A program made the position numbers and the translations under genes. A stretch of 64,000 nt of DNA from NCBI RefSeq assembly GCF_003018255.1, contig NZ_CP027440.1, one strand, 5' to 3'. This DNA comes from Escherichia coli. GTDB lineage: Bacteria > Pseudomonadota > Gammaproteobacteria > Enterobacterales > Enterobacteriaceae. Each line of letters begins with the position of its first letter. The stretch's first letter is position 1. The notes below the pieces were generated by a model. It was given only the letters and a program-made list of their open reading frames with translations. It was not told the DNA's origin and searched no databases. Of this stretch, positions 1 through 61,119 are shown one piece after another.

Positions 1-44
1 CTACGGTTTAAAAGATAACGATTACTGAAGGATGGACAGAACAC

Positions 45-1211
45 ATGAACTTACATGAATATCAGGCAAAACAACTTTTTGCCCGCTATGGCTTACCAGC
101 ACCGGTGGGTTATGCCTGTACTACTCCGCGCGAAGCAGAAGAAGCCGCTTCAAAAATCGGTGCCGGTCCGTGGGTAGTGAAATGTCAGGTTCACGCTGGT
201 GGCCGCGGTAAAGCGGGCGGTGTGAAAGTGGTAAACAGCAAAGAAGACATCCGTGCTTTTGCAGAAAACTGGCTGGGCAAGCGTCTGGTAACGTATCAAA
301 CAGATGCCAATGGCCAACCGGTTAACCAGATTCTGGTTGAAGCAGCGACCGATATCGCTAAAGAGCTGTATCTCGGTGCCGTTGTAGACCGTAGTTCACG
401 TCGCGTGGTCTTTATGGCCTCCACCGAAGGCGGCGTGGAAATCGAAAAAGTGGCGGAAGAAACTCCGCACCTGATCCACAAAGTTGCGCTTGATCCGCTG
501 ACTGGCCCGATGCCGTATCAGGGACGCGAGCTGGCGTTCAAACTGGGTCTGGAAGGTAAACTGGTTCAGCAGTTCACCAAAATCTTCATGGGCCTGGCGA
601 CCATTTTCCTGGAGCGCGACCTGGCGCTGATCGAAATCAACCCGCTGGTCATCACCAAACAGGGCGATCTGATTTGCCTCGACGGCAAACTGGGCGCTGA
701 CGGCAACGCATTGTTCCGCCAGCCTGATCTGCGCGAAATGCGTGACCAGTCGCAGGAAGATCCGCGTGAAGCACAGGCTGCACAGTGGGAACTGAACTAC
801 GTTGCGCTGGACGGTAACATCGGTTGTATGGTTAACGGCGCAGGCCTGGCGATGGGCACCATGGACATCGTTAAACTGCACGGCGGCGAACCAGCTAACT
901 TCCTGGACGTTGGCGGCGGCGCAACCAAAGAACGTGTAACCGAAGCGTTCAAAATCATCCTCTCTGACGACAAAGTGAAAGCCGTTCTGGTTAACATCTT
1001 CGGCGGTATCGTTCGTTGCGACCTGATCGCTGACGGTATCATCGGCGCGGTAGCGGAAGTGGGTGTTAACGTACCGGTCGTGGTACGTCTGGAAGGTAAC
1101 AACGCCGAACTCGGCGCGAAGAAACTGGCTGACAGCGGCCTGAATATTATTGCAGCAAAAGGTCTGACGGATGCAGCTCAGCAGGTTGTTGCCGCAGTGG
1201 AGGGGAAATAA
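45..1211 (+). CDS. sucC: succinyl-CoA synthetase beta subunit
   Basis: 388-aa ORF starting [21 protein letters not shown]-grasp fold, matches remembered E. coli SucC; stop overlaps sucD start by 1 nt. Confidence 0.96.
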
Positions 1212-2080
1212 TGTCCATTTTAATTGATAAAAACACCAAGGTTATCTGCCAGGGCTTTACCGGTAGCCAGGGGACTTTCCACTCAGAACAGGCCATTGCA
1301 TACGGCACTAAAATGGTTGGCGGCGTAACCCCAGGTAAAGGCGGCACCACCCACCTCGGCCTGCCGGTGTTCAACACCGTGCGTGAAGCTGTTGCTGCTA
1401 CTGGCGCTACCGCTTCTGTTATCTACGTACCAGCACCGTTCTGCAAAGACTCCATTCTGGAAGCTATTGATGCAGGCATCAAACTAATTATCACCATCAC
1501 TGAAGGCATCCCGACGCTGGATATGCTGACCGTGAAAGTGAAACTGGATGAAGCAGGCGTTCGTATGATCGGCCCGAACTGCCCAGGCGTTATCACTCCG
1601 GGTGAATGCAAAATCGGTATCCAGCCGGGTCACATTCACAAACCGGGTAAAGTGGGTATCGTTTCCCGTTCCGGTACACTGACCTATGAAGCGGTTAAAC
1701 AGACCACGGATTACGGTTTCGGTCAGTCGACCTGTGTCGGTATCGGCGGTGACCCGATCCCTGGCTCTAACTTTATCGACATCCTCGAAATGTTCGAAAA
1801 AGATCCGCAGACCGAAGCGATCGTGATGATCGGTGAGATCGGCGGTAGCGCTGAAGAAGAAGCGGCTGCGTACATCAAAGAGCACGTTACCAAGCCTGTT
1901 GTGGGTTACATCGCTGGTGTGACTGCGCCGAAAGGCAAACGTATGGGCCACGCGGGTGCGATCATTGCCGGTGGGAAAGGGACTGCGGATGAGAAATTCG
2001 CTGCTCTGGAAGCCGCAGGCGTGAAAACCGTTCGCAGCCTGGCGGATATCGGTGAAGCACTGAAAACTGTTCTGAAATAA
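1211..2080 (+). CDS. sucD: succinyl-CoA synthetase alpha subunit
   Basis: 289-aa [27 protein letters not shown], CoA-binding alpha subunit; translationally coupled to sucC. Confidence 0.96.
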
Positions 2081-2180
2081 ATATCTGTAATAAGAAATAG
2101 CCCTCGCCGCTTCCTTCTACAGGAATGGCGAAGGGCTGTCGGTTTCGACATGGTTGGCCATCATATGATGGCCTTTTTTG
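2081..2180 (+). ncRNA. sdhX: sucD 3' UTR, likely source of the 3'UTR-derived sRNA SdhX, ending at an intrinsic terminator
   Basis: Position immediately downstream of sucD, ending in hairpin plus T-run; sRNA identity is from recollection of K-12, not sequence-verified. Confidence 0.4.
2156..2180. terminator. intrinsic terminator between convergent sucD and mngR
   Basis: Stem ggcca / tggcc around loop tcatatga, followed by tttttt. Confidence 0.7.
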
Positions 2181-2183
2181 TGC

Positions 2184-2906
2184 TTATCGCGATGATTTTC
2201 GCTGCGCTATCAGGGTAAATTTATAGTCATCGGTATTAAAAGCGTTGCGGCTATATTCAAACACCCGGCCATCAACTAAATATCCACGCGATACTTTTTC
2301 AAGAATCGGCTTAGTCTGGCTGATATTAAGCAGACGGCTCATTTCTTCGGTTGGCATCAGAGGAATGATTTCCTGTTCGCTACGATCGATAACCATTTTC
2401 TTCACTTCTTCAATAAAGTGATATTTCGAATTTTCCATGACCTGCCAGGTGAGATCCGGGAACAACGCAAGCGGCATCCAGGTTTCTTCCAGCGCCATTG
2501 GCTTTTGCTTGCGATAGCGCACGCGCTTCACATGCCACACACGATCCTGCGCGGTGATTTGTAGCTGTTGCTGAAGAAAATCGTCAGCCGGAATCACTTC
2601 GAATATCAGAACTTCACTGTGTGTATCGACGTGACGGTCCGTCAGTTTTTCATCAAAACTGGTTAACTGAAAAATATCGTAATTGACCCGCTCTTCTTTT
2701 ACGTAAGTCCCGCTGCCCTGAATGCTTTCGAGGATCTGCTGTTCAACTAACTGGCGCAAAGCCTGACGCACCGTAACCCGGCTGACGCCAAACTCTGTTT
2801 GTAGCGCTGATTCAGTGGGTAACGCATCGCCAGGTTTAAGCTCGCCACGCGCAATTTGCTCACGAATGCGATCAGCAATCTGTCGGTATAAGGGTTTCCG
2901 TCCCAT
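2184..2906 (-). CDS. mngR: GntR-family repressor of the mannosyl-glycerate operon
   Basis: 240-aa ORF MGRKPLYRQIADRIREQIARGEL with N-terminal GntR helix-turn-helix; divergent from mngA. Confidence 0.94.
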   Translation of the reverse strand: MGRKPLYRQIADRIREQIARGELKPGDALPTESALQTEFGVSRVTVRQALRQLVEQQILESIQGSGTYVKEERVNYDIFQLTSFDEKLTDRHVDTHSEVLIFEVIPADDFLQQQLQITAQDRVWHVKRVRYRKQKPMALEETWMPLALFPDLTWQVMENSKYHFIEEVKKMVIDRSEQEIIPLMPTEEMSRLLNISQTKPILEKVSRGYLVDGRVFEYSRNAFNTDDYKFTLIAQRKSSR

Positions 2907-3015
2907 GATTTAGCATCTCATTAATACGAATTTAGCCATTATGCCCGATAAATTCATCCTGTAAATAATACAAATACAATACAAATAATTTCAATCAAGT
3001 GAAATTGATCACATA

Positions 3016-4992
3016 ATGGTATTGTTTTATCGGGCACACTGGCGCGACTATAAAAACGATCAAGTGAGGATCATGATGAACCTGACGACTCTGACCCACC
3101 GCGATGCGTTGTGTCTGAATGCGCGCTTTACCAGCCGTGAAGAGGCCATCCACGCGTTGACTCAACGTCTTGCTGCTCTGGGGAAAATTTCCAGTACTGA
3201 GCAATTTCTGAAAGAAGTGTATCGCCGTGAAAGCCTTGGCCCGACCGCCTTAGGTGAAGGGCTGGCTGTGCCGCATGGCAAAACTGCTGCGGTAAAAGAA
3301 GCGGCGTTTGCGGTCGCCACACTCAGCGAGCCGCTTCAGTGGGAAGGCGTGGATGGCCCGGAAGCGGTTGATTTAGTGGTGTTGCTGGCGATTCCCCCCA
3401 ATGAAGCGGGTACTACGCACATGCAACTGCTGACAGCGCTGACCACGCGCCTGGCGGATGATGAGATACGGGCGCGTATACAGTCGGCGACGACGCCTGA
3501 TGAATTGCTCTCGGCGCTGGATGACAAGGGAGGCACGCAACCCTCAGCTTCTTTTTCCAACGCGCCAACTATCGTCTGCGTAACGGCCTGCCCGGCGGGT
3601 ATTGCTCACACCTATATGGCTGCGGAGTATCTGGAAAAAGCCGGACGCAAACTCGGCGTGAATGTCTACGTTGAAAAGCAAGGTGCTAACGGCATTGAAG
3701 GGCGTTTAACGGCAGAGCAACTCAATAGTGCAACCGCCTGTATTTTTGCGGCTGAAGTCGCCATCAAGGAGAGTGAGCGTTTTAACGGCATTCCCGCGCT
3801 TTCTGTGCCTGTTGCCGAGCCGATTCGCCATGCAGAAGCGTTGATCCAACAAGCGCTTAACCTCAAGCGTAGCGATGAGACGCGTACCGTACAGCAAGAT
3901 ACGCAACCGGTGAAAAGCCTCAAAACGGAGCTAAAACAGGCACTGTTGAGCGGGATCTCTTTTGCAGTGCCGTTGATTGTCGCGGGGGGCACGGTGCTGG
4001 CGGTTGCGGTATTACTGTCGCAAATCTTCGGGCTACAAGATTTGTTTAATGAAGAAAACTCCTGGCTGTGGATGTACCGCAAACTGGGCGGAGGGCTGCT
4101 CGGGATTTTGATGGTACCGGTGCTGGCAGCCTACACCGCCTATTCACTGGCTGATAAACCGGCGTTAGCGCCAGGCTTTGCGGCTGGACTTGCCGCCAAC
4201 ATGATCGGTTCCGGGTTTCTCGGTGCTGTCGTTGGCGGATTGATAGCCGGTTATCTGATGCGCTGGGTGAAAAATCACTTGCGTCTTAGCAGTAAATTCA
4301 ATGGATTCCTGACTTTTTATCTCTACCCGGTGCTCGGTACGTTGGGAGCGGGCAGTCTGATGCTGTTTGTGGTGGGGGAACCTGTCGCCTGGATCAATAA
4401 CTCGCTTACCGCCTGGCTGAACGGTCTGTCAGGAAGTAACGCGCTGTTGCTGGGTGCCATTCTCGGTTTTATGTGTTCCTTTGACCTTGGAGGGCCAGTG
4501 AACAAAGCCGCTTATGCATTCTGCCTGGGCGCAATGGCGAACGGCGTTTACGGCCCGTATGCCATTTTCGCCTCCGTCAAAATGGTTTCGGCATTTACCG
4601 TAACCGCTTCCACGATGCTCGCACCGCGCCTGTTTAAAGAGTTTGAAATTGAGACCGGGAAATCCACCTGGCTGTTAGGGCTGGCAGGTATTACCGAAGG
4701 GGCGATCCCGATGGCGATTGAAGATCCGCTGCGGGTTATTGGTTCGTTTGTGCTGGGCTCTATGGTAACGGGCGCTATCGTCGGCGCGATGAATATCGGC
4801 CTTTCGACACCCGGTGCCGGCATTTTCTCGCTCTTTTTACTTCATGATAATGGCGCGGGCGGTGTTATGGCGGCAATTGGCTGGTTTGGTGCGGCATTGG
4901 TGGGGGCTGCAATCTCGACTGCAATTCTTCTGATCTGGCGGCGTCACGCGGTTAAGCATGGCAACTATCTGACTGATGGCGTAATGCCATAA
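3016..4992 (+). CDS. mngA: PTS 2-O-alpha-mannosyl-D-glycerate-specific EIIABC
   Basis: 658-aa ORF with EIIA/EIIB region followed by polytopic membrane domain; length equals K-12 MngA as I recall; alternative start at ATG 3073. Confidence 0.92.
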
Positions 4993-5009
4993 ACAAAAAG
5001 GAAACGACG

Positions 5010-7643
5010 ATGAAAGCGGTATCTCGCGTTCACATCACCCCGCATATGCACTGGGATCGGGAGTGGTATTTCACCACCGAAGAGTCACGCATTCTGCTGG
5101 TCAATAATATGGAAGAGATCCTGTGCCGACTGGAACAGGACAACGAATACAAATATTACGTACTCGACGGGCAAACGGCGATCCTCGAAGATTATTTCGC
5201 GGTGAAACCGGAAAACAAAGACCGTGTGAAGAAACAGGTAGAAGCAGGCAAGTTGATTATCGGCCCCTGGTATACCCAGACCGATACCACGATTGTTTCT
5301 GCGGAATCCATCGTCCGTAATCTGATGTACGGAATGCGTGACTGCCTCACGTTTGGCGAGCCGATGAAAATAGGTTATTTACCAGATTCCTTTGGCATGT
5401 CCGGGCAACTGCCGCATATTTACAATGGATTTGGCATTACCCGCACCATGTTCTGGCGCGGATGTTCTGAGCGCCACGGTACTGATAAAACCGAGTTTTT
5501 GTGGCAAAGCAGTGACGGTAGCGAAGTGACGGCGCAGGTGCTGCCGCTGGGCTACGCCATCGGTAAGTACTTACCTGCCGACGAAGACGGATTACGCAAA
5601 CGCCTCGACAGTTATTTTGATGTGCTGGAAAAAGCGTCAGTAACCAAAGAGATTTTGCTGCCGAATGGTCATGACCAGATGCCATTGCAGCAAAATATCT
5701 TCGAAGTGATGGATAAGCTACGTGAGATCTACCCTCAACGTAAGTTTGTGATGAGCCGCTTTGAAGAGGTATTTGAGAAGATCGAAGCGCAGCGAGATAA
5801 TCTGGCAACCCTGAAAGGGGAATTTATTGATGGCAAATATATGCGCGTGCATCGCACCATCGGTTCTACGCGTATGGATATCAAAATTGCCCACGCGCGT
5901 ATTGAAAATAAGATTGTTAATCTGCTGGAACCGCTGGCAACGCTGGCCTGGACGTTGGGTTTTGAATACCACCACGGCTTGCTGGAGAAATTGTGGAAAG
6001 AAATTTTAAAAAACCACGCCCATGACAGCATCGGCTGCTGCTGTAGTGACAAAGTTCATCGCGAGATTGTCGCCCGTTTCGAACTGGCAGAAGACATGGC
6101 GGATAATCTGCTGCGTTTCTATATGCGTAAAATTGCCGATAACATGCCACAGAGTGATGCCGACAAACTTGTGCTGTTTAACCTGATGCCCTGGCCGCGG
6201 GAAGAAGTGATCAACACCACTGTGCGGCTGCGCGCCAGCCAGTTTAATTTGCGGGACGATCGCGGTCAGCCTGTACCGTATTTTATTCGCCATGCCCGTG
6301 AGATCGATCCTGGCCTAATCGATCGGCAAATCGTTCATTACGGTAATTATGATCCCTTTATGGAGTTTGATATTCAGATCAACCAGATTGTCCCTTCTAT
6401 GGGCTATCGCACGCTTTATATCGAAGCGAATCAGCCTGGCAACGTGATTGCGGCAAAAAGTGACGCTGAAGGGATACTGGAAAATGCTTTCTGGCAAATT
6501 GCGCTCAATGAGGATGGAACGCTACAACTGGTAGATAAAGACAGCGGTGTGCGCTATGACCGGGTGTTGCAAATTGAAGAAAGCTCTGATGATGGTGATG
6601 AATATGACTATTCACCCGCAAAAGAAGAGTGGGTAATTACTTCGGCGAACGCGAAACCGCAATGCGAGATTACTCATGAGGCCTGGCAGAGTAGGGCTGT
6701 TATCCGCTATGACATGGCGGTGCCGCGTAATCTGCATGAACGCAGCGCAAGACAATCCACTGGCAGAGTAGGGGTGGAGTTGGCTGTCACTCTGAGTGAT
6801 AACAGCAGGCGCATTGATGTGGATATCAACCTTGATAACCAGGCTGACGATCATCGCCTTCGCGTCCTGGTCCCTACACCTTTTAACACCGACAGTGTTC
6901 TGGCCGATACCCAGTTTGGTTCGCTAACGCGCCCCGTGAACGACAGTGCAATGAACAACTGGCAGCAAGAAGGCTGGAAAGAAGCGCCGGTTCCGGTATG
7001 GAATATGCTCAACTATGCTGCCTTACAGGAAGGGCGTAACGGTCTGGCTGTCTTTAGCGAAGGGCTACGTGAATATGAAGTCATCGGTGAAGAGAAGAAA
7101 ACCTTTGCCATTACGTTGCTGCGTGGCGTGGGCTTACTGGGGAAAGAAGATCTGCTTTTAAGGCCTGGACGTCCTTCAGGAATAAAAATGCCGGTGCCCG
7201 ATTCACAATTACGTGGCTCCTTTAGCTGCCGTCTGAGCTTATTTAGTTATACAGGTACGCCTTCGACCGCCGGTGTAGCCCAGCAGGCGCGCGCATGGCT
7301 GACGCCAGTACAGTGTTACAACAAAATCCCGTGGGATGCGATGAAGTTAAATAAAGCCGGATTCAATGTGCCGGAAAGCTATAGCTTGCTGAAAATGCCC
7401 CCTGTGGGATGCCTGATTAGCGCTCTTAAAAAAGCGGAAGACCGGCAAGAAGTGGTATTGCGACTGTTTAATCCGGCAGAATCGACAACCTGTGAGGCAA
7501 CTGTCGCGTTCAGTCGTGAGGTGATTTCATGTACGCAAACGATGATGGATGAAAGCATCAGCACAGCGGAAAGAGATAATTTAAAGGAACTGGGGGCATT
7601 TTTACCGGGGCAGTCACGGACATTTAGCTACCGCCTTGGCTGA
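5010..7643 (+). CDS. mngB: alpha-mannosidase (GH38)
   Basis: 877-aa [26 protein letters not shown]38 N-terminal signature; follows mngA by 18 nt. Confidence 0.94.
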
Positions 7644-7787
7644 TTATTGCGCTAAAAGTGTATCTGAGGGGGGCAATAATTTCAGGCCATCTTCGGATGG
7701 CCTGAGATTGTTGATAAACAAGTTTGTTAGCTTACGCAGATACCAGATTTGACCTGCGTGAGAACCGCAGGCCATTTATCATTTCAG

Positions 7788-9185
7788 TTACCCCTTAAAC
7801 GTTAACCACGGTCGAAATCTGACCGCTGGCTGAATTAATCCGGCTTCTTGTTGGGCTTCGATAACCGGACCAATATCTTTATAAGCCGCTGGCGCTTCTT
7901 CAAAACGTCGTTCTTCGCGCAATGTGACGCATTGCCACGGCAGCGTTGACTCTTCAGTCGCGCGTGAGCGCATGGCCTGCCGACGCTGGCTGCGTCCTGC
8001 TCCGTGACTGCATGACCACAGCCACTCCGGGTTGCCGCAACCTACCGCAAGCCACGAATAATCGCCCATTGAACCGGGGATTAACGCCAGATTGCCCACT
8101 CGTGCCGGTGTTGCGCCTTTGCGATGAATATTCATTTCATGCTCGCGAAGGATGATGTTATGTGGCACATCCACCACCAGATGCGAATTGTCCTGATGAA
8201 AGAGATTGGCAAGACATACGCGCACCATTTCGGCAATTGTGACGCGATTTAACCATGCGTAACGCGCCGCCATTCCTATCGCTTGTAGATATTCCTCCGC
8301 CAGTCCGCCTGCCAGACCATATAACCCGCTTTGTGGATGTTTATGTCCGGTGGGCCATTCAGCACGGGCGCGATCCATCCAGCGTCTTCCGACGTAAAAG
8401 CCAACATCTCGCGATCCACTGTGGATCATCACCACAATATCGCCTGTTTTCAGCCCTTGTTGCCAGGCTACATGGCGATCAACCACGCTATCAACGACCT
8501 GAAGTTCAATAAAATGATTACCTGAACCCGGCGTACCCAGACAAGGATCGCGGAGTAATGCGCGGTCCGTTGCCTGCAGGGCGGGTGGGGCATAACGCGA
8601 ATGACTGTTATGCTCGTTAAGCCCAATGCAGCGGTCAATCTCTTGTACCATTCGGGGGATATTCGTGCGTATCCAGAGACCTTCTGATGGCAAGGTCGAC
8701 ACGCAATCTGCCGGTCCGCCATCAAAAAGCGCGGTGAACGCCTGTGCGGATAACGGAACATCGCGCTCATTTTGCAGTAGCACTTGCGTTAACCGCTGAG
8801 CGATGACGTCTTTATGCGCTTCGGCTTGCTCAAGTGTTAATCCGGTCGTCAGCAGCCGCATGCCACAAGAAATATCGGTGCCGATGGCGGCGGGAATGAC
8901 TAAATCCGGCGTTGAGGCCACCACCGCGCCAACGGGGACGCCATTGCCGGGATGAAAATCTGGCGTCGCGCACGTCTGGCGCACATAACCTGGGTGGTCT
9001 GGTAGCTTCACTTCTGCAAAATCAAGCAGTTGTGTTACTGCTTTTTCTTCCAGCGGCAGTTCGTCCGGCAGCAGTACGCGGGCACTGGCACCTGATGGAC
9101 GAGATAATGAAACAATATTGTTGGCGCGGGAAAGTTGGATCCCTTTGCGCAGAAAGGCTTTATCAAGCCTTGAAAGATGATGCAT
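7788..9185 (-). CDS. RtcB-family RNA 3'-phosphate ligase paralogue (orphan, no rtcA/rtcR/prfH neighbour)
   Basis: 465-aa ORF; blocks IPAAIGTDISCGM, GSGNHFIELQ, MIHSGSRDVG, ALIPGSMGDYS, CSHGAGRS and C-terminal AYKDIGPV...KG align by eye to E. coli RtcB; about 29-residue N-terminal extension; ATG at 9185. Confidence 0.85.
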   Translation of the reverse strand: MHHLSRLDKAFLRKGIQLSRANNIVSLSRPSGASARVLLPDELPLEEKAVTQLLDFAEVKLPDHPGYVRQTCATPDFHPGNGVPVGAVVASTPDLVIPAAIGTDISCGMRLLTTGLTLEQAEAHKDVIAQRLTQVLLQNERDVPLSAQAFTALFDGGPADCVSTLPSEGLWIRTNIPRMVQEIDRCIGLNEHNSHSRYAPPALQATDRALLRDPCLGTPGSGNHFIELQVVDSVVDRHVAWQQGLKTGDIVVMIHSGSRDVGFYVGRRWMDRARAEWPTGHKHPQSGLYGLAGGLAEEYLQAIGMAARYAWLNRVTIAEMVRVCLANLFHQDNSHLVVDVPHNIILREHEMNIHRKGATPARVGNLALIPGSMGDYSWLAVGCGNPEWLWSCSHGAGRSQRRQAMRSRATEESTLPWQCVTLREERRFEEAPAAYKDIGPVIEAQQEAGLIQPAVRFRPWLTFKG

Positions 9186-9436
9186 AACGCTGTCCTGAAA
9201 TATAGACGTTAAACAACCCCCTGTATGGCGAGGGTAATTTTGTCTTTCCGGTCAGCAGCCAGCAAAAGGGAAAGAAAACGCGCGTAGTGTATGTGGCGAT
9301 AGCAAGTGTTACAAGTGGTAAATCTGGCTTATTGTTAAAGAGGAATTATCTTTTGTGAAGTCTTTTAAGGCCATGACTCATTCAATTTAACCGGACATAG
9401 ATAATATATAACATAGGGTATCTAAATTTATCATTG

Positions 9437-9575
9437 TATACTTGTCATAATTCAAGTTGCATGTGCTGCATCGATGTTCGCTCACCCAGGTCACTTACTT
9501 ATGTAAGCTTCTGGAAATTCATTATTTGTTCCCTTCCTGCAACTTGACTTATTTAGAGTATATTCATGTATACAC
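9437..9575. repeat. ERIC (IRU) repetitive element
   Basis: Contains cgctcaccc.ggtcacttacttatgtaagct (reverse complement of the ERIC2/ERIC1R primer regions) with inverted termini tgtatac...gtataca; near-identical to the copy at 46501-46630. Confidence 0.8.
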
Positions 9576-10060
9576 ATCGAGATTTCAGCCAGCAGACGCG
9601 CATCTGGCGTGCCGTGGCGGATCTGTAGCGGTTTTTGCAGAGTTTCGGTGAGGCGACGGCAAGCTGCAACGCCGTGGTTAACGACCGGTAAACCGTTCAG
9701 TTTAGAGGTTCCGGCTTCGATGGATTTTTTAATCCCTACAGCCGCTTCTTCGTACCGATTCAGACGGGTATATGCATCGATGGTGCTCGGCAGCAGATCG
9801 CACTCTTCTTGTAGTGTTTTCAGTAGTTCGATGTGTTCGTCCATCAGCGCCACACCTGCGCGCGGTTGGCTAAGGGTTTTACCTTCCTTGTCTGCTTTCA
9901 ACAGCGCAAGAGAGAAGCGTTTATGCTCAGGAATGGTTTGTTGGTATTTAACGCCATCTTCAAAGTTTTCAACATCCTTGCCGGTTTCCCAGGTTTTCAG
10001 TACCTGTTGCCGCTCGGTCATGAATTCGTCATGGGTTAATTTCTTATTTCGAAGTTCCAT
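9491..10060 (-). pseudogene. glmE: glutamate mutase E subunit (methylaspartate mutase epsilon), truncated
   Basis: First about 160 aa ([50 protein letters not shown]) match GlmE/MutE; homology ends near 9580 where the frame runs into the ERIC element and stops; full-length GlmE is about 480 aa. Confidence 0.75.
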
Positions 10061-10078
10061 TGATTGCAGCCTTAATTG

Positions 10079-11467
10079 TTATAGGGTTAAGCATTGAATA
10101 CTGGTGCGCGCGGCGGCCAGCGGATCGACTCTGGCGACGTTTGCCAGCAGTGGTAATAGCCCCCGGGAATCGCGGTAATATTCAAATTCGGTCGGTAAGA
10201 GAATGCGTTTACCGTCGTCGTTTAACTCGCGGTATTTCAACCAGTGATGCATATCGAACTGACTGGCACGCGAGAGCCATCCGCCGGATCCGACGACTTT
10301 ACGCACGGTTGTCAGGTCACGTCCCATCTGTAAATCGACATTGCCGACGCAGGTGCAGACCTCTTTTTTGGTGCCCGCATGTCTTTCGGTGGCATAACCC
10401 ACACACAGTCCGGCCAGGACGGTATCGAAATATTTTTCTTCTGCATTCGCGGGTAAGTAGTCGGGATGAGCGACTAGATGACGGAGGTAATGATAAAAAG
10501 CGTCCAGCTGTGCGGGTTGCTGAGCAAAATTCACATTGACTAACTCTTTCGCACTTTCACCAACCACCATTGCCGAGACGCGCATTCCCAGATCTCCTTC
10601 CACCGTCCGTTTTACGAAGGGTTCCGGTACGCCATGTAAAACAGTGTCGGGCGAGAGCGTGTTGGCACTGGCGGAATAGACATCGGTGGTTGCGCCACCC
10701 ATGTCGATCAGCATGAACTCTTTCCAGCTGTGATCGACATTACTGATTGCCTTAACCAGTTCAAAGACTGTCCACGGTGTCGGCATTGGTTCTTCGCCTG
10801 TTTTATCAACAACGACATCCAGCCCTTTCCCTTTAACGATGCGTTTAAGGAATATGTCGCAGATAGCCTGGCGTGCAGCTAAAGGGTTCGGATGGTCAAG
10901 ATCGGGCAGAACGTTGTCGACGATGGTCAGGTCTTTATGCCCGAGGATCTCCTGCACCTCGTCCTGAATATCCCGGTTTCCGGCATAAATAATGGCGCAG
11001 TCGAGTTTGGATTCTGCCAACACACGGGCGTTATTCAGTCCGTAGCTTTCTTCTCCGCCATCGGTGCCGCCGGTGAACAAGAGAATATCGGGCTGCGTTT
11101 CTTCCAGTGCCTGGATATCACGGCGGTTCAGCTTGTAGGCGTAAGATTGCGCAATTTTAGCACCCGCAGAGTGAGCGGTTACTTTCGCGGTTTCCAGGGT
11201 GATAGAAGGCACCAATCCCATTGCGGCAACCGCCAGCCCACCTTTGGCAGAGGAGGAATACTTCAATGCAACCTCACCACTGTTTAACAGGGGGAGGGCA
11301 TCATCTACGTTTAACACCTGGTCCAGGCTGGAGAAAAACCCCTTCGCCAGATGATGGGTGGTGGTTGGGGTCAGTACGTGGTTAACCAACGTTAACGCGT
11401 CCCCCTCCCGGGCGAAGAGGGCTGCTTTGGTCCACGTCGATCCAATATCGACAGAGACGATTTGCAT
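10079..11467 (-). CDS. glmL: glutamate mutase accessory protein GlmL/MutL (actin/Hsp70-like fold)
   Basis: 462-aa [21 protein letters not shown], between glmS and glmE as in clostridial mut operons; start overlaps glmS stop. Confidence 0.75.
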   Translation of the reverse strand: MQIVSVDIGSTWTKAALFAREGDALTLVNHVLTPTTTHHLAKGFFSSLDQVLNVDDALPLLNSGEVALKYSSSAKGGLAVAAMGLVPSITLETAKVTAHSAGAKIAQSYAYKLNRRDIQALEETQPDILLFTGGTDGGEESYGLNNARVLAESKLDCAIIYAGNRDIQDEVQEILGHKDLTIVDNVLPDLDHPNPLAARQAICDIFLKRIVKGKGLDVVVDKTGEEPMPTPWTVFELVKAISNVDHSWKEFMLIDMGGATTDVYSASANTLSPDTVLHGVPEPFVKRTVEGDLGMRVSAMVVGESAKELVNVNFAQQPAQLDAFYHYLRHLVAHPDYLPANAEEKYFDTVLAGLCVGYATERHAGTKKEVCTCVGNVDLQMGRDLTTVRKVVGSGGWLSRASQFDMHHWLKYRELNDDGKRILLPTEFEYYRDSRGLLPLLANVARVDPLAAARTSIQCLTL

Positions 11468-11916
11468 CAGATTGCCTCTTCAAGAATACGAGTATCAACG
11501 TCATGACGTTGGTTGATATCGTGGGCCATCAGCTGACAAACATCTTCTAAGTCATGACTTGGGGCAAAGACGCGATCAAATCCCATCTCTTTGAATTTGG
11601 TTTCCACGTCAGCGAAGTCATGTTTTCCGACCACCAGGTTACCGCCCACATAGAGCAGGATGTCCCCCAGTCCACGCTCGATGCAGCGTTCGCGCATGCC
11701 CAGACAGTCGATATCGCCATGCCCATAGATAGAGGAGACGACAATCGCGTCAGCACCAGTTTCAATGGCAGCATCAATATATTCGTCCTGGCTGACCATT
11801 ACGCCCAGATTAATAACTCTGAAGTCATGGTTGCTAAAAACGCGGTCCAGAACTTTATTGCCTACTGCATGGCAGTCCGCGCCAATAACGCCAATCACAA
11901 GTGTTGCTTTCTTCAT
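11467..11916 (-). CDS. glmS: glutamate mutase S subunit (B12-binding sigma subunit)
   Basis: 149 aa from [24 protein letters not shown] with DxHxxG cobalamin-binding motif; GGA-type SD upstream of ATG at 11916 (the track ORF extends further 5'). Confidence 0.82.
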
Positions 11917-12463
11917 GGGTAATCCTTTGTAAGACAGAGAGTAAAATAAGTTACACACGTCGTATTTATGGCCGCTCATAACGGCACAGGTTTAATATCA
12001 CAGGAGTGTCTTTATCTGACCGTAATGTTGCAATTGATCTATTTTCAAAATGTCTTTCGGGAAATGATTGTTTAAAGTGTGTTTTCAAATTCTCATGTTA
12101 ATTCAGTGTGTTATGTCAACTAATGTCATGAATGTTAAATTTTTAAAATTAACTTGATTTGATGTATTGAGATAATTGTGATCAACTTCTAATTTGCATT
12201 TTAGTGATATGGGGTTAGCCATGAGTAAATGCATTTCATAAAAGTTAAGTCGAATTTCACTGCAATTCATCTCTGCTTAATGTAAAAATAATGTTGAAAA
12301 TAACAAATAATTAATGATTCATGCGAATTATGACCTTTGTTAGCTCTTTTGATTTTTCGTAAAAAAGAAAAGTACATGAAGGTGCTACCAGTACGAGAAA
12401 CGTTAATCAAAAGTTTTATTACGTCTGGCAATAACGCAGGCCATTTTTCGCGACAGGAGGGAT

Positions 12464-12886
12464 TTAATCAGTATAATCCTCATACAATAGGTCAGGATTT
12501 ACAGAACCGTTAACGGGGTTTTGGTGTTGAAATTTAGAAATGGTGGAGTCAATCAATGAAGACAGTATCGAAAAAATGACTGTGTCAGAATTAATTTCAA
12601 TTAATCCTTCTCGTTGTTGACCAAAAAAGATATTTATCTTGATTTCATTTGTACTACGGAAATCAATATGTAGTAATTTTTGATCGCTGAGATTTTCTGT
12701 TTCATAAATGTTTTTGGCGATAGTCGGATGTATTGATGCCAGACATCTGCTCAGATAAGCCAGATCCTTTAGGGAACACCCCGCTGAGTAGAGGATGTCA
12801 GAGAATTTTTGTGTGTCAACTGTTGGCTCTGAAGCGTATGTTGCATTGACTGGAAGGGTGTTGAAGGAGATTTGAGATGGGATCAT
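12464..12886 (-). CDS. hypothetical protein, 140 aa, no recognisable family
   Basis: Uninterrupted ORF in a strongly AT-rich block, co-directional with and 80 bp downstream of the 314-aa ORF; weak SD; no motif I can identify. Confidence 0.5.
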   Translation of the reverse strand: MIPSQISFNTLPVNATYASEPTVDTQKFSDILYSAGCSLKDLAYLSRCLASIHPTIAKNIYETENLSDQKLLHIDFRSTNEIKINIFFGQQREGLIEINSDTVIFSILSSLIDSTISKFQHQNPVNGSVNPDLLYEDYTD

Positions 12887-12966
12887 TATTTAAATCTTTC
12901 CGTGAGTAATAAAAATTAATCCCCGGGCATTGTTTAGTAATATTTGCCACAGGGGATATATAAAAA

Positions 12967-13911
12967 TTAAAGTATTTGATTGGCATCGGTTAACTGATCA
13001 ATAACCAGTGCCAGATTGGTAAACATTTTGAAAAAGCGATACTGGCTCGGAATATCTCTTTCAAAGACGAAACATTCAATGTCATTGTTTGAAAAATAAA
13101 GGACTAGTGATGCTGATTCGTCAGGAAAAATATGGAAATATATCTGGTTACCAGAAGGAGGATAGTCCAGAAGAAGGGTATCTTTGCCCGTCACATACCT
13201 GTTGTGGTCGTGGATGCTGCGCTCACACTTCATCAGAGGTGTCATGATACTCATGTATTCATCTGATGTTAATATATTAAAATCACCATCCATTTTAAAG
13301 AAACGATAAAGTAACAGTACATCCTCTTGCGTAACCGGTTCGTTTGTTTTTAGAGGGAAATAAGTGGGAACCAGAAGATGAGGTTCTAATCTATTTTGTT
13401 GAGCGCTATAACTAAATTTGAACATAAATTCCGGATCGCTCATCAATTGAGCGACATAATTATGCCTGGCTTCAAAAATTTTAACTTTTATCAGGTTAAA
13501 TAAGTCTGTTTCGTCATCCTGTATTAAAAGACATTGGCCATAGCAGCCAGGCTTTTTTTCATTATAAGCAGAAACGGTTATTCTGTCAGGAGTGTCAACG
13601 TTATATCCAAAAGCCAGATAGTGACCTTCCTCATCGAGATTTGTTTCCAGGTTATTTAAATTCATCACATGAAGTGTTTGCAATGCTGATTCAATGAGCT
13701 GTTGACTCTCTGAGGTAAATGTTTCGCGCTGCGTTGTATAAAGTGTATCGATTCCAACGACTATCCGATGTGGGTCAAGGATGGCGGCAATCATCTTTAT
13801 TACCTGCACAGTCATGGGTGATGTCATTGATTCTTTATCTGTTTTTAGAGGATCATTAGATGGCCAACCTGAGAAGCGATTGACAGCAGAACTGATAATA
13901 TCAGGACTCAT
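12967..13911 (-). CDS. hypothetical protein, 314 aa, no recognisable family
   Basis: Long ORF in AT-rich DNA with GAGG SD 9 nt upstream of ATG at 13911; no long hydrophobic segments, no P-loop or other motif recognised. Confidence 0.6.
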   Translation of the reverse strand: MSPDIISSAVNRFSGWPSNDPLKTDKESMTSPMTVQVIKMIAAILDPHRIVVGIDTLYTTQRETFTSESQQLIESALQTLHVMNLNNLETNLDEEGHYLAFGYNVDTPDRITVSAYNEKKPGCYGQCLLIQDDETDLFNLIKVKIFEARHNYVAQLMSDPEFMFKFSYSAQQNRLEPHLLVPTYFPLKTNEPVTQEDVLLLYRFFKMDGDFNILTSDEYMSIMTPLMKCERSIHDHNRYVTGKDTLLLDYPPSGNQIYFHIFPDESASLVLYFSNNDIECFVFERDIPSQYRFFKMFTNLALVIDQLTDANQIL

Positions 13912-14339
13912 AGCAGCAACCTCATTGTAATCAAGCGAGGCGCTGAGCGTACTCGGCTATAGAAAAACTAACTTGCAAAAATCGCTCATTTTTCATTTAT
14001 CAGGCGAAAGTGGTCTCTGTTCACTCAGAAACAATCACTCCCGCTAAGTCATACCTGTTTCATCGATACATTTAAGTGATTATTACTAATGAAACAATAA
14101 CATAATGGGCTTACGGCCGGTGCTCATAAACGCAACAATCAATTAACTTTGATAAAAATATGTTATGTAAAATAGCAACAAATTGGCTAATCTAATCAAT
14201 TGGTATTATAAAAAGTGGATAAGGCGGTTCTGTTAAATAAAACACTGGTTTTTTATCTATACCTTTTCATTGTAATAATTGTGTTGCATAAATATTTCAC
14301 AATAAATTAACAATAAAATCACCAATGATCTATGGTTTA

Positions 14340-14713
14340 TACATAATTAACATATTTGGTTGATTTTGATATAAATCAATTTTTAATTCTTGAAAAAAAT
14401 CTGCAAAACACGATAAATTGTCGTAGATCAAATTGGTGAGATCGTGACAATTTCGCTATAAATTGATCACTGTCGAAAAATGCAAATTTGCTCAATAAAA
14501 ACCTGTTTATTGTAAGGATTTTGCGGCGTAATATAATTACGGGATCAATTTGGTTTATTCATTAACACATTTGTAACTTTTTTATCATTGTCTTTTCCTC
14601 TTTTGATGAAATGGCAACGATAGAGGCGAGCAAATAATTTTGTATTGGGGCATGCGTGTGACCCTTTCTAACGGGGTTCACTCTCGGAGTCTTCATGCGA
14701 TGAGCAAGGAGTC
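14340..14713 (+). promoter_or_regulatory. cydAB promoter/regulatory region with FNR-type sites
   Basis: TTGAT-ATAA-ATCAA at 14356-14369 and TTGTC-GTAG-ATCAA at 14418-14431 match the FNR consensus TTGAT-N4-ATCAA; AT-rich upstream of cydA. Confidence 0.6.
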
Positions 14714-22301: not shown

Positions 22302-22847
<546 letters not shown>

Positions 22848-22856
22848 GAGAATTGC

Positions 22857-23648
22857 ATGAGCAGTAACTTCAGACATCAACTATTGAGTCTGTCGTTACT
22901 GGTTGGTATAGCGGCCCCCTGGGCCGCTTTTGCTCAGGCACCAATCAGTAGTGTCGGCTCAGGCTCGGTCGAAGACCGCGTCACTCAACTTGAGCGTATT
23001 TCAAATGCTCACAGCCAGCTTTTAACCCAACTCCAGCAACAACTCTCTGATAATCAATCCGATATTGATTCCCTGCGCGGTCAGATTCAGGAAAATCAGT
23101 ATCAACTGAATCAGGTCGTGGAGCGGCAAAAGCAGATCCTGTTGCAGATCGATAGCCTCAGCAGCGGTGGTGCAGCGGCGCAATCAACCAGCGGTGATCA
23201 AAGCGGTGCGGCGGCATCAACGACGCCGACAGCTGATGCTGGTACTGCGAATGCTGGCGCGCCGGTGAAAAGCGGCGATGCAAACACGGATTACAATGCA
23301 GCAATTGCGCTGGTGCAGGATAAATCCCGCCAGGATGAAGCAATAGTGGCATTTCAGAATTTCATCAAAAATTACCCTGATTCAACTTACCTGCCAAACG
23401 CCAATTATTGGCTGGGTCAGTTAAACTACAACAAGGGTAAAAAAGATGATGCGGCGTATTATTTTGCTTCGGTAGTGAAAAACTATCCGAAGTCACCGAA
23501 GGCTGCAGATGCGATGTTTAAAGTCGGCGTCATCATGCAGGACAAAGGTGACACCGCAAAAGCGAAAGCCGTATACCAGCAGGTTATCAGTAAATACCCT
23601 GGTACTGATGGCGCTAAACAGGCGCAAAAACGTCTGAACGCGATGTAA
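22857..23648 (+). CDS. cpoB: cell division coordinator CpoB (YbgF)
   Basis: 263-aa ORF with signal peptide, coiled-coil and C-terminal TPR region. Confidence 0.93.
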   Translation: MSSNFRHQLLSLSLLVGIAAPWAAFAQAPISSVGSGSVEDRVTQLERISNAHSQLLTQLQQQLSDNQSDIDSLRGQIQENQYQLNQVVERQKQILLQIDSLSSGGAAAQSTSGDQSGAAASTTPTADAGTANAGAPVKSGDANTDYNAAIALVQDKSRQDEAIVAFQNFIKNYPDSTYLPNANYWLGQLNYNKGKKDDAAYYFASVVKNYPKSPKAADAMFKVGVIMQDKGDTAKAKAVYQQVISKYPGTDGAKQAQKRLNAM

Positions 23649-23812: not shown

Positions 23813-23888
23813 GGGTCGTTAGCTCAGTTGGTAGAGCAGTTGACTTTTAATCAATTGGTCGCAGGTTCGAATCCTGCACGACCCACCA
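23813..23888 (+). tRNA. lysT: tRNA-Lys (UUU)
   Basis: 76-nt gggtcgttagctcagttggtagagcagttgacttttaatc...cccacca; anticodon loop cttttaa; symbol assigned by position in the cluster. Confidence 0.92.
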
Positions 23889-24023
23889 ATCGCTAAGGTG
23901 GAAGCGGTAGTAAAACGTGAAGGATAACGTTGCGTCAGCAACGGCCCGAAGGGCGAGACGAAGTCGAGTCATCCTGCACGACCCACCACTAACCTAGTTA
24001 GTTGTAGTATCCAGCGTAGTATC

Positions 24024-24099
24024 GGGTGATTAGCTCAGCTGGGAGAGCACCTCCCTTACAAGGAGGGGGTCGGCGGTTCGATCCCGTCATCACCCACCA
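24024..24099 (+). tRNA. valT: tRNA-Val (UAC)
   Basis: 76-nt gggtgattagctcagctgggagagcacctcccttacaagg...cacccacca; anticodon TAC. Confidence 0.92.
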
Positions 24100-24101
24100 C
24101 C

Positions 24102-24177
24102 GGGTCGTTAGCTCAGTTGGTAGAGCAGTTGACTTTTAATCAATTGGTCGCAGGTTCGAATCCTGCACGACCCACCA
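24102..24177 (+). tRNA. lysW: tRNA-Lys (UUU)
   Basis: Identical to the lysT sequence, 2 nt after valT. Confidence 0.92.
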
Positions 24178-24228
24178 CTAATTACGGTGGGTTCGGTGGA
24201 AGTAGTTTGTAGTATTCAGCGCAGTATC

Positions 24229-24304
24229 GGGTGATTAGCTCAGCTGGGAGAGCACCTCCCTTACAAGGAGGGGGTCGGCGGTTCGATCCCGTCATCACCC
24301 ACCA
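24229..24304 (+). tRNA. valZ: tRNA-Val (UAC)
   Basis: Identical to the valT sequence. Confidence 0.92.
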
Positions 24305-24307
24305 CTC

Positions 24308-24383
24308 GGGTCGTTAGCTCAGTTGGTAGAGCAGTTGACTTTTAATCAATTGGTCGCAGGTTCGAATCCTGCACGACCCACCA
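24308..24383 (+). tRNA. lysY: tRNA-Lys (UUU)
   Basis: Identical tRNA-Lys copy. Confidence 0.92.
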
Positions 24384-24529
24384 GTTTTAACATCAAACTC
24401 AGATGTTAAGCGTGAAGGATAACGTTGCGCCAGCAACGGCCCGTAGGGCGAGCGAAGCGAGTCATCCTGCACGACCCACCAATTTTAAAGATTGGTTCCG
24501 AGTAGAAATCTTTCAGGTAACACCCGTAT

Positions 24530-24605
24530 GGGTCGTTAGCTCAGTTGGTAGAGCAGTTGACTTTTAATCAATTGGTCGCAGGTTCGAATCCTGCACGACC
24601 CACCA
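24530..24605 (+). tRNA. lysZ: tRNA-Lys (UUU)
   Basis: Identical tRNA-Lys copy. Confidence 0.92.
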
Positions 24606-24638
24606 TCCTGAATGATTAAAGCAGCATAATCCCGCAAG

Positions 24639-24714
24639 GGGTCGTTAGCTCAGTTGGTAGAGCAGTTGACTTTTAATCAATTGGTCGCAGGTTCGAATCC
24701 TGCACGACCCACCA
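24639..24714 (+). tRNA. lysQ: tRNA-Lys (UUU)
   Basis: Identical tRNA-Lys copy, last gene of the cluster. Confidence 0.92.
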
Positions 24715-25066
24715 ATGTAAAAAAGCGCCCTAAAGGCGCTTTTTTGCTATCTGCGATACTCAAAGATTCGAACCTGCAGCAGGTTCGAGTTGAGCGCAGC
24801 GAAACAACGGAGCCGCTCGCGGCGACGGCCCGTAGGGCGAGCGAAGCGAGTTATCCTGCACGACCCACCAATGTAAAAAAGCGCCCTAAAGGCGCTTTTT
24901 TGCTATCTGCGATACTCAAAGATTCGAACCTGCAGCAGGTTCGAGTTGAGCGCAGCGAAATAACGGAGCCGCTCGCGGCGACGGCCCGTAGGGCGAGCGA
25001 AGCGAGTCATCCTGCACGACCCACCAATGTAAAAAAGCGCCCTAAAGGCGCTTTTTTGCTATTCAG
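24715..25066 (+). repeat. 156-bp direct tandem repeat (2 full units plus a partial), each with an intrinsic terminator and a tRNA-Lys 3'-end-like segment
   Basis: Units 24715-24870 and 24871-25026 nearly identical; each has hairpin aaaaaagcgccctaaaggcgcttttttgc and ends in atcctgcacgacccacca; partial third unit to about 25066. Confidence 0.85.
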
Positions 25067-30775: not shown

Positions 30776-30799
30776 ATACTTACTCCTCAAATCATCTTT

Positions 30800-46500: not shown

Positions 46501-46630
46501 ATATACTCGTCATACTTCAAGTTGCATGTGCTGCGTCTGCGTTCGCTCACCCCAGTCACTTACTTATGTAAGCTCCTGGGGATTCACTCGCTTGTCGCCT
46601 TCCTGCAACTCGAATTATTTAGAGTATATC
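46501..46630. repeat. ERIC (IRU) repetitive element
   Basis: atatactcgtcat...cgctcaccccagtcacttacttatgtaagctcctggggattcac...gagtatat; palindromic; matches the ERIC1R/ERIC2 primer regions. Confidence 0.85.
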
Positions 46631-59984: not shown

Positions 59985-60129
59985 CGCTAGTATCGGCTTA
60001 ACCACTAAACACTCTAGCCTCTGCACCTGGGTCAACTGATACGGTGCTTTGGCCGTGACAATGCTCGTAAAGATTGCCACCAGGGCGAAGGAAGAAATGA
60101 CTTCGCCTCCCGTATCTGGAAAGGTGTAC
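59985..60129 (+). ncRNA. moaA 5' leader, likely Moco riboswitch
   Basis: About 145-nt structured leader directly upstream of moaA; assigned from recollection of K-12, covariance-model check not done. Confidence 0.5.
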
Positions 60130-61119
60130 ATGGCTTCACAACTGACTGATGCATTTGCGCGTAAGTTTTACTACTTGCGCCTGTCGATTACTGATGTGTG
60201 TAACTTTCGTTGCACCTACTGCCTGCCGGATGGCTACAAACCGAGCGGCGTCACCAATAAAGGCTTTCTTACCGTCGATGAAATTCGCCGGGTTACGCGC
60301 GCCTTTGCCAGTCTGGGCACCGAAAAAGTGCGCCTGACAGGCGGTGAGCCGTCTTTACGCCGCGACTTTACCGATATCATCGCCGCTGTGCGGGAAAACG
60401 ACGCTATCCGCCAGATTGCGGTCACCACCAATGGTTACCGTCTGGAACGCGATGTGGCGAACTGGCGCGATGCGGGACTTACTGGCATCAACGTCAGCGT
60501 TGATAGCCTTGACGCTCGCCAGTTTCATGCCATTACCGGGCAGGATAAATTCAACCAGGTCATGGCAGGGATCGATGCTGCATTTGAGGCCGGTTTTGAG
60601 AAGGTCAAAGTCAATACCGTGCTGATGCGTGATGTTAATCATCATCAGCTCGACACCTTTCTGAACTGGATCCAGCATCGCCCTATCCAGCTGCGTTTCA
60701 TCGAATTGATGGAAACGGGTGAGGGCAGCGAGCTCTTCCGTAAGCATCACATCTCTGGTCAGGTTCTGCGTGACGAGCTACTGCGTCGCGGCTGGATCCA
60801 CCAATTACGTCAACGCAGCGACGGTCCCGCGCAAGTCTTTTGTCATCCGGATTACGCCGGAGAGATTGGCCTTATCATGCCGTATGAAAAAGACTTCTGC
60901 GCCACTTGCAACCGCCTGCGCGTTTCCTCCATTGGTAAACTCCATCTCTGCCTGTTTGGTGAAGGCGGCGTTAACCTGCGCGATCTGCTGGAAGACGATA
61001 CCCAGCAACAGGCGCTGGAAGCGCGTATTTCAGCGGCGCTGCGGGAGAAGAAACAGACCCATTTCCTGCATCAAAACAACACCGGTATTACGCAAAACTT
61101 ATCGTACATTGGCGGCTAA
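60130..61119 (+). CDS. moaA: GTP 3',8-cyclase (radical SAM)
   Basis: [31 protein letters not shown], 329 aa; track ORF trimmed of 27 codons. Confidence 0.96.

Follow-up and report, generated by a model that had tools for sequence, protein, structure and literature searches.

The window, as we call the whole 64-kb stretch of Escherichia coli DNA analysed here, carries a truncated form of the methylaspartate-pathway island, a gene cluster that lies in E. coli between cydA and sucD/mngRAB. The features at and around the truncation are as follows, with positions counted from the first nucleotide of the window.

7788..9185, minus strand: RtcB-family gene, just beyond the deletion (PF01139 covers residues 63-465 at 319 bits; also annotated by PGAP).
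9437..9563, no strand assigned: ERIC element of 127 bp, resident in the rtcB upstream region and not inserted.
9491..9574, minus strand: read-through tail of 27 unrelated codons plus TAA (11 nt of spacer, the remainder within the ERIC element).
9573..9574, no strand assigned: deletion junction, two bases (TG on the gene strand) without a match in either intact flank.
9575..10060, minus strand: glmE remnant, codons 1-162 of the 481-aa catalytic subunit E (profile and PDB matches; PGAP pseudogene).
10079..11467, minus strand: glmL, mutase accessory (reactivase/chaperone) protein, intact, 462 aa.
11467..11916, minus strand: glmS, B12-binding subunit S of methylaspartate (glutamate) mutase, intact, 149 aa.
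12464..13911, minus strand: two hypothetical genes (140 and 314 aa), the retained, AT-rich, cydA-proximal end of the island.

An earlier note on this DNA had described glmS, with its DxHxxG motif, and glmL as full-length, and profile searches agree. GlmS scores well above the NCBIfam equivalog cutoff of NF002612 (253.3 bits against 110, over residues 1-147 of 149) and that of TIGR01501 (246.6 bits against 135.8), and its translation contains DCHAVG near the N-terminus, which is the DxHxxG base-off/His-on cobalamin-binding motif. GlmL matches the equivalog NF040745 over its full length (508.7 bits, cutoff 475) and TIGR01319 at 883 bits. The glmS stop codon and the glmL ATG share one nucleotide (TGATG), an overlap consistent with the translational coupling that the note had also proposed. 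One RefSeq entry, WP_000710390.1, represents GlmS both in the window and in O157:H7, where the island is intact. In a 22-sequence alignment with identities down to 55%, GlmL keeps every invariant column, and the two replacements specific to its lineage, Y108S and C267S, lie in variable ones. Altogether, glmL has acquired two non-synonymous and one synonymous lineage-specific substitutions and glmS none, which is too few for dN/dS or any inference about selection. Signs of decay are absent from both genes, which on their sequence appear stranded yet undamaged.

The third mutase gene is not intact. The stump open reading frame (9491-10060, minus strand, 189 aa) starts 18 nt past glmL and matches TIGR01503 at positions 1-162 of 480 only, with a score (254.3 bits) below the cutoff of 390.1. 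The GlmE chains in PDB entries 6h9e_B and 1cb7_B (483 aa) likewise align at residues 1-162 only (E = 1e-53), so the match of about 160 residues reported in the earlier note holds. A full-length functional GlmE would have about 480 aa and a score above the equivalog cutoff; the 189-aa product has neither. The same note had the frame running into an ERIC repeat and terminating there, and the stop codon (9491-9493) does lie inside the element at 9437-9563. On the 1CCW/1I9C structures, the greater part of the TIM barrel would lie in the missing portion of GlmE, as would the catalytic residues, which we assume to be Glu171 and Tyr181 in Clostridium cochlearium numbering, both beyond residue 162. 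Judging from the known structure, with epsilon residues 163-483 missing a heterotetramer with a complete TIM-barrel active site could not form.

What has been lost can be read from strains that retain the island. In STO_Bone2 (locus L003) the order is cydA, hyp314, hyp140, glmS, glmL, glmE (481 aa), mal, AtuA-family, DUF4387, symporter, fumD, cobO, LysR, ERIC, rtcB, mngB, mngA, mngR, a composition that matches the cluster glmS-mutL/glmL-glmE-mal-DUF1446-...-gltP-fumD-cobA-LTTR described in E. coli O157:H7 and other Enterobacteriaceae (Kronen and Berg, 2015; PMC4682846). By blastn, the window aligns with this locus in two collinear blocks that end at L003 positions 18526 and 27370; the 8,843 bp between them are missing in a single clean deletion with a 2-nt filler. 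The deletion runs from glmE codon 163 into the LysR-rtcB intergenic region and removes the rest of glmE and the eight genes after it, those named being mal, the AtuA-family gene, the DUF4387 gene, a symporter of the dicarboxylate/amino acid type, fumD (a class I fumarase), cobO and the LysR gene. The extent of this loss, with the transporter, cobO and the LysR regulator, had escaped the earlier note.

None of the lost genes has moved elsewhere within the window. Searched by tblastn with L003 queries, the 64 kb contain no match to Mal, FumD, the AtuA-family protein, the DUF4387 protein, the symporter, CobO, LysR or the GlmE C-terminus; the only island matches are hyp314, hyp140, GlmS, GlmL, GlmE residues 1-163 and RtcB. 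The absence of methylaspartase and mesaconase genes, and of any remaining part of glmE, asserted in the earlier note is thereby confirmed for this interval, and Mal and FumD, whose co-location with the mutase genes is the mark of a functional cluster, are not found beside them. The comparison with O157:H7 that the note had suggested lets the missing genes be seen directly. That strain shares with the window the cydA-adjacent site, glmS, glmL and the 5' end of glmE at about 98% nucleotide identity, and both upstream hypothetical genes; the window differs in a gap of 8.84 kb that begins at glmE codon 163 and takes in the LysR regulator.

The neighbourhood of the island is itself variable. O157:H7 has the island without rtcB and mngRAB, both of which the window keeps; other strains (STO_Bone2, 6EVA) have the island together with rtcB-mngRAB, and rtcB follows the LysR gene in intact strains. 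RM14723 carries an intact island with hut genes instead of rtcB on the other side, and K-12-like genomes share only 360-625 nt adjoining cydA. By this comparison of sequences, the sucD-cydA interval is a hotspot of recombination and deletion in E. coli.

Compared base by base with L003, glmE homology to the intact gene stops exactly at 9575 and right-side homology restarts at 9572, which leaves the two filler bases at 9573-9574. The k-mer that spans the junction is CTCGATGTGTATACATGAATATAC. At the glmE-side breakpoint, the intact strains checked have neither microhomology nor ERIC-like sequence. A junction without microhomology points to illegitimate recombination as the probable mechanism. 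The closest intact relative of the window haplotype in a megablast search of 5,426 complete E. coli genomes is only 98.7% identical, so part of the filler could be a later point mutation. In 6EVA, the first filler position is occupied by a T.

The ERIC element next to the junction deserves separate consideration, since the earlier note had glmE cut at the repeat and regarded the repeat as the deletion scar. ERIC (also IRU) elements are 127-bp MITEs (Sharples and Lloyd, 1990; Hulton et al., 1991; reviewed in PMC3184786), and the size, terminal inverted repeats and distribution seen here agree with that description (PMC3184786). The copy at 9437-9563 resembles published elements in its length of 127 bp, its TATAC...GTATA terminal inverted repeats, its hairpin and its membership in a set of dispersed intergenic copies; it departs from them in its approximately 85% identity to other genomic copies and, as a result of the deletion, in now terminating a pseudogene with a stop codon. 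A second, canonical copy in the window (approximately 46502-46629), matched perfectly by both ERIC primers, can be aligned with it over the full length. The copy beside glmE is matched by ERIC2 with 2 mismatches and, at up to 3 mismatches, not by ERIC1R, which shows 4 in the alignment; its core is recognisable, though diverged. Its minimum-free-energy fold is a long imperfect hairpin with paired ends (-32.8 kcal/mol, z = -3.46). Used as a query, this 127-nt copy has full-length matches at 30,779 places, spread over 5,425 of the 5,426 E. coli genomes; the median is 6 per genome and the identity about 84-85%.

An element that transposed into glmE, or that broke the gene by ERIC-ERIC recombination, would explain why the truncated frame ends in the repeat and why the breakpoint lies just 9 bp from the element end, and a role in promoting plasticity has been suggested for ERIC-type MITEs of other enterobacteria (PMC3184786). 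We nevertheless consider this very unlikely. Intact STO_Bone2 and intact 6EVA (locus L010) both have this ERIC copy in their LysR-rtcB spacer, at an unchanged position, and the flank that borders the junction in the window, ...TATACATGAATATAC, is also present at the same position in both loci. A copy found with its flanks upstream of rtcB in strains with intact islands is a resident element and not a product of the deletion, which already refutes insertion. On the glmE side of the break the intact strains have nothing ERIC-like, and the 11-base spacer between the junction and the element is native rtcB-side sequence. Mapped against the ends of the element, as the earlier note had proposed, the break adjoins the repeat without entering it: the deletion endpoint lies 9 bp outside, and glmE homology ends 11 bases short. 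The element is thus pre-existing, neither scar nor insertion, and appears to be a bystander that the deletion brought against the glmE stump. More generally, a repeat that adjoins a truncated gene should not be assumed to have caused the truncation.

The reading in which we have high confidence is that a known gene island of E. coli, that of the methylaspartate pathway, is present in the window as a deletion allele, formed by one illegitimate loss of 8,843 bp beside a resident ERIC element. The ancestral state would have been the full island followed by ERIC and rtcB, as still found in STO_Bone2 and 6EVA. A single homology-independent deletion would then have fused glmE, after codon 162, to the spacer 9 bp short of the element, with two filler bases; the truncated frame now runs through 27 random codons to a stop within ERIC. 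Lost along with two-thirds of the catalytic subunit are three enzymes (methylaspartase, the FumD mesaconase and the adenosyltransferase), the transporter and the presumed LysR regulator.

This allele is rare. In a megablast comparison of the region with the 5,426 complete E. coli genomes, the glmS-glmL-glmE' segment is present in 1,135, with homology ending at 9575 in all but a handful, and about 1,126 genomes carry the glmE 3' end and mal. Given these counts, a second copy of glmE and mal elsewhere in the source genome is unlikely. The exact junction, filler included, occurs in 5 of the 5,426: JNE23-011 and JNE112863 (human, Japan), DETEC-S792 (human, China), A25 (monkey, Mexico) and DCE7 (pig, China), under accessions NZ_AP045067.1, NZ_AP045072.1, NZ_CP116067.1, NZ_CP028750.1 and NZ_CP090611.1. 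RefSeq/PGAP already annotates the glmE stump as an incomplete pseudogene in each of these five carriers.

The five carriers fall into two flanking haplotypes, which differ at 30 of 2,325 nt over glmS-glmL-glmE' and at 28 of about 1,400 nt in rtcB. One of them is only 3 nt from intact RM14723 on the glm side. Differences on both flanks mean that a single origin requires later recombination of the flanks. Reshuffling of flanks by homologous recombination is usual in E. coli, and one deletion event with flanks later exchanged in this way is the most economical reading of the sequences. Around the junction the two haplotypes share 360 identical nt; this core gives only a weak signal of a single origin and we set it aside, nearby intact strains being nearly identical there too. 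The shared 2-nt filler is the better argument.

Other accounts of the junction fare worse than a deletion. Conceivably the short form could be ancestral, or naturally functional, comprising glmS, glmL and a 189-aa GlmE-like protein, with the full island inserted later. That glmS and glmL are undamaged, with all conserved residues retained, and that the allele persists in two haplotype backgrounds would suit such a history. We find it scarcely credible, because glmE homology stops in mid-domain at codon 162, where the frame goes on in some 1,126 genomes, and the codons of the 27-aa tail come from spacer and repeat DNA. The GlmE fragment falls below the family cutoff and presumably has neither most of the TIM barrel nor the catalytic Glu171; the allele is also found in only 5 of the 5,426 genomes. 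A contig collapsed or misjoined at the adjoining repeat has a negligible chance of accounting for the junction: identical junctions in five independently sequenced complete genomes with differing flanking SNPs rule out assembly error, and a 127-bp repeat whose copies share about 85% identity has neither the length nor the similarity needed to confuse assemblies of long reads.

With the catalytic part of the mutase, the methylaspartase, FumD, the transporter, the adenosyltransferase and the regulator gone, we infer that the pathway is dead in strains with the deletion allele. The description of the locus in the earlier note as a non-functional remnant of the methylaspartate pathway, with S and L intact, E truncated, and the mal and mesaconase genes missing, is therefore probably right. 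Glutamate mutases of C. cochlearium and C. tetanomorphum (PDB 1CCW, 1CB7, 1I9C, 6H9E) illustrate how much remains: the GlmE fragment corresponds to epsilon residues 1-162, and GlmS has the DxHxxG motif in common with them, whereas epsilon residues 163-483 are missing from the GlmE of the window. Partial clusters have a precedent in Clostridium kluyveri, whose rudimentary glutamate-fermentation cluster has one mutase subunit and a mesaconase gene (PMC4682846). The two are alike in keeping only some of the mutase genes; they differ in the organism and in the genes kept, which in the window are S, L and a third of E, the mesaconase being absent.

Citramalate is the product of the glutamate-fermentation cluster, and published tests of the intact cluster in O157:H7 gave no detectable expression (PMC4682846). 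Since expression of the intact cluster could not be demonstrated there, the loss of a rarely used accessory pathway is unsurprising. We regard the locus as a case of ordinary gene-cluster decay. The cluster itself (Kronen and Berg, 2015) and the standard ERIC element are already known, as is the pseudogene, which RefSeq has flagged; a literature search gave no relevant publication on the deletion itself or on the island beside cydA, and the deletion allele is undescribed but unremarkable. It shows that an accessory glutamate-fermentation island can be lost piecemeal. It also means that glmS or glmL alone is unfit for scoring a strain as positive for the methylaspartate pathway.

A more speculative possibility is that glmS and glmL are of use without GlmE, for example as a cobalamin-binding/chaperone module, or that the deletion allele spread by recombination because it was advantageous, either through loss of the pathway or through placement of rtcB behind the glm promoter. 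We think both ideas improbable. The only hints in their direction are the presence of the junction in two haplotypes 1.3-2% apart and the lack of a disabling mutation in either gene. A consensus promoter and terminator scan of positions 9100-12600 returned fewer sites than shuffled sequence and is thus uninformative on expression of the remnant. When the whole window was searched against Rfam, neither a riboswitch nor any other RNA family turned up close to the glm genes.

The two hypothetical genes at the cydA-proximal end of the island have a GC content of 29-40%; 1,134 genomes contain them at a coverage of at least 80%, a count close to that for glmS-glmL. Their products belong to no family in PADLOC, NCBIfam or Pfam. 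At the other end of the island, the glm remnant now lies directly upstream of rtcB and in the same orientation, the convergent LysR gene that separated them having gone. We considered whether the RtcB encoded there has an unusual N-terminus and rejected the idea; the Pfam match at residues 63-465 is an ordinary RtcB domain.

The sucD-cydA interval (window positions ~1-14340) is a hypervariable hotspot in E. coli. Across the window, the O157:H7 7.1_Anguil locus (L002), the STO_Bone2 locus with its intact glutamate-fermentation island (L003), three further E. coli loci (L008, L009 and L010) and K-12-like genomes, the interval takes at least five gene arrangements:

Arrangement 1: without the island, K-12-like
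Arrangement 2: the island alone
Arrangement 3: the island with rtcB-mngRAB
Arrangement 4: the island with hut genes
Arrangement 5: the deletion allele carried by the window

Two hypothetical genes lie near cydA, within an AT-rich stretch at 12000-14500.

12464-13911, minus strand: two hypothetical genes, encoding proteins of 140 aa and 314 aa

The DNA that holds them has a GC content of 29-40%, and neither protein matches a family in NCBIfam, Pfam or PADLOC. These genes appear to belong to the glm island, because the number of genomes in which they are found (1,134) is about the same as the number that carry the island.

At the DETEC-S792 locus (L005), which is otherwise near-identical to the compared locus L004, some 35 SNPs that set it apart from L004 are densely clustered at L005 positions 3120-3723. 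This patch, which spans the region upstream of glmS together with the 3' end of the gene for the 140-aa hypothetical protein, looks like a short recombination tract that has been imported. The 140-aa gene is frameshifted in DETEC-S792. Pseudogenes other than the window's glmE are present at the locus in other strains: mngA of DCE7 (L007) has an internal stop, and in O157:H7 7.1_Anguil the LysR regulator gene of the island carries a frameshift.

The window also carries a stand-alone member of the RtcB family.

7788-9185, minus strand: RtcB-family gene with a full-length Pfam RtcB domain

Its scores with two NCBIfam equivalog models, 208.7 and 171.8, fall short of the respective cutoffs of 407 and 271.8. 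Carriage extends to 689 of the 5,426 complete E. coli genomes searched, in several contexts, and obvious partner genes for it were not found.

An Rfam scan of the window returned the following features, which are ordinary RNA features.

22748-22886: CpoB/ybgF thermometer
23813-25026: array of seven tRNA genes interspersed with four RtT repeats
59998-60142: Moco riboswitch

Homologous tRNA arrays in the compared loci are annotated as tRNA-Lys and tRNA-Val.

Finally, the window contains a second, canonical ERIC copy at ~46502-46629, to which the ERIC1R and ERIC2 primers both match perfectly. The alignment between this element and the copy at 9437-9563 runs from one end to the other.
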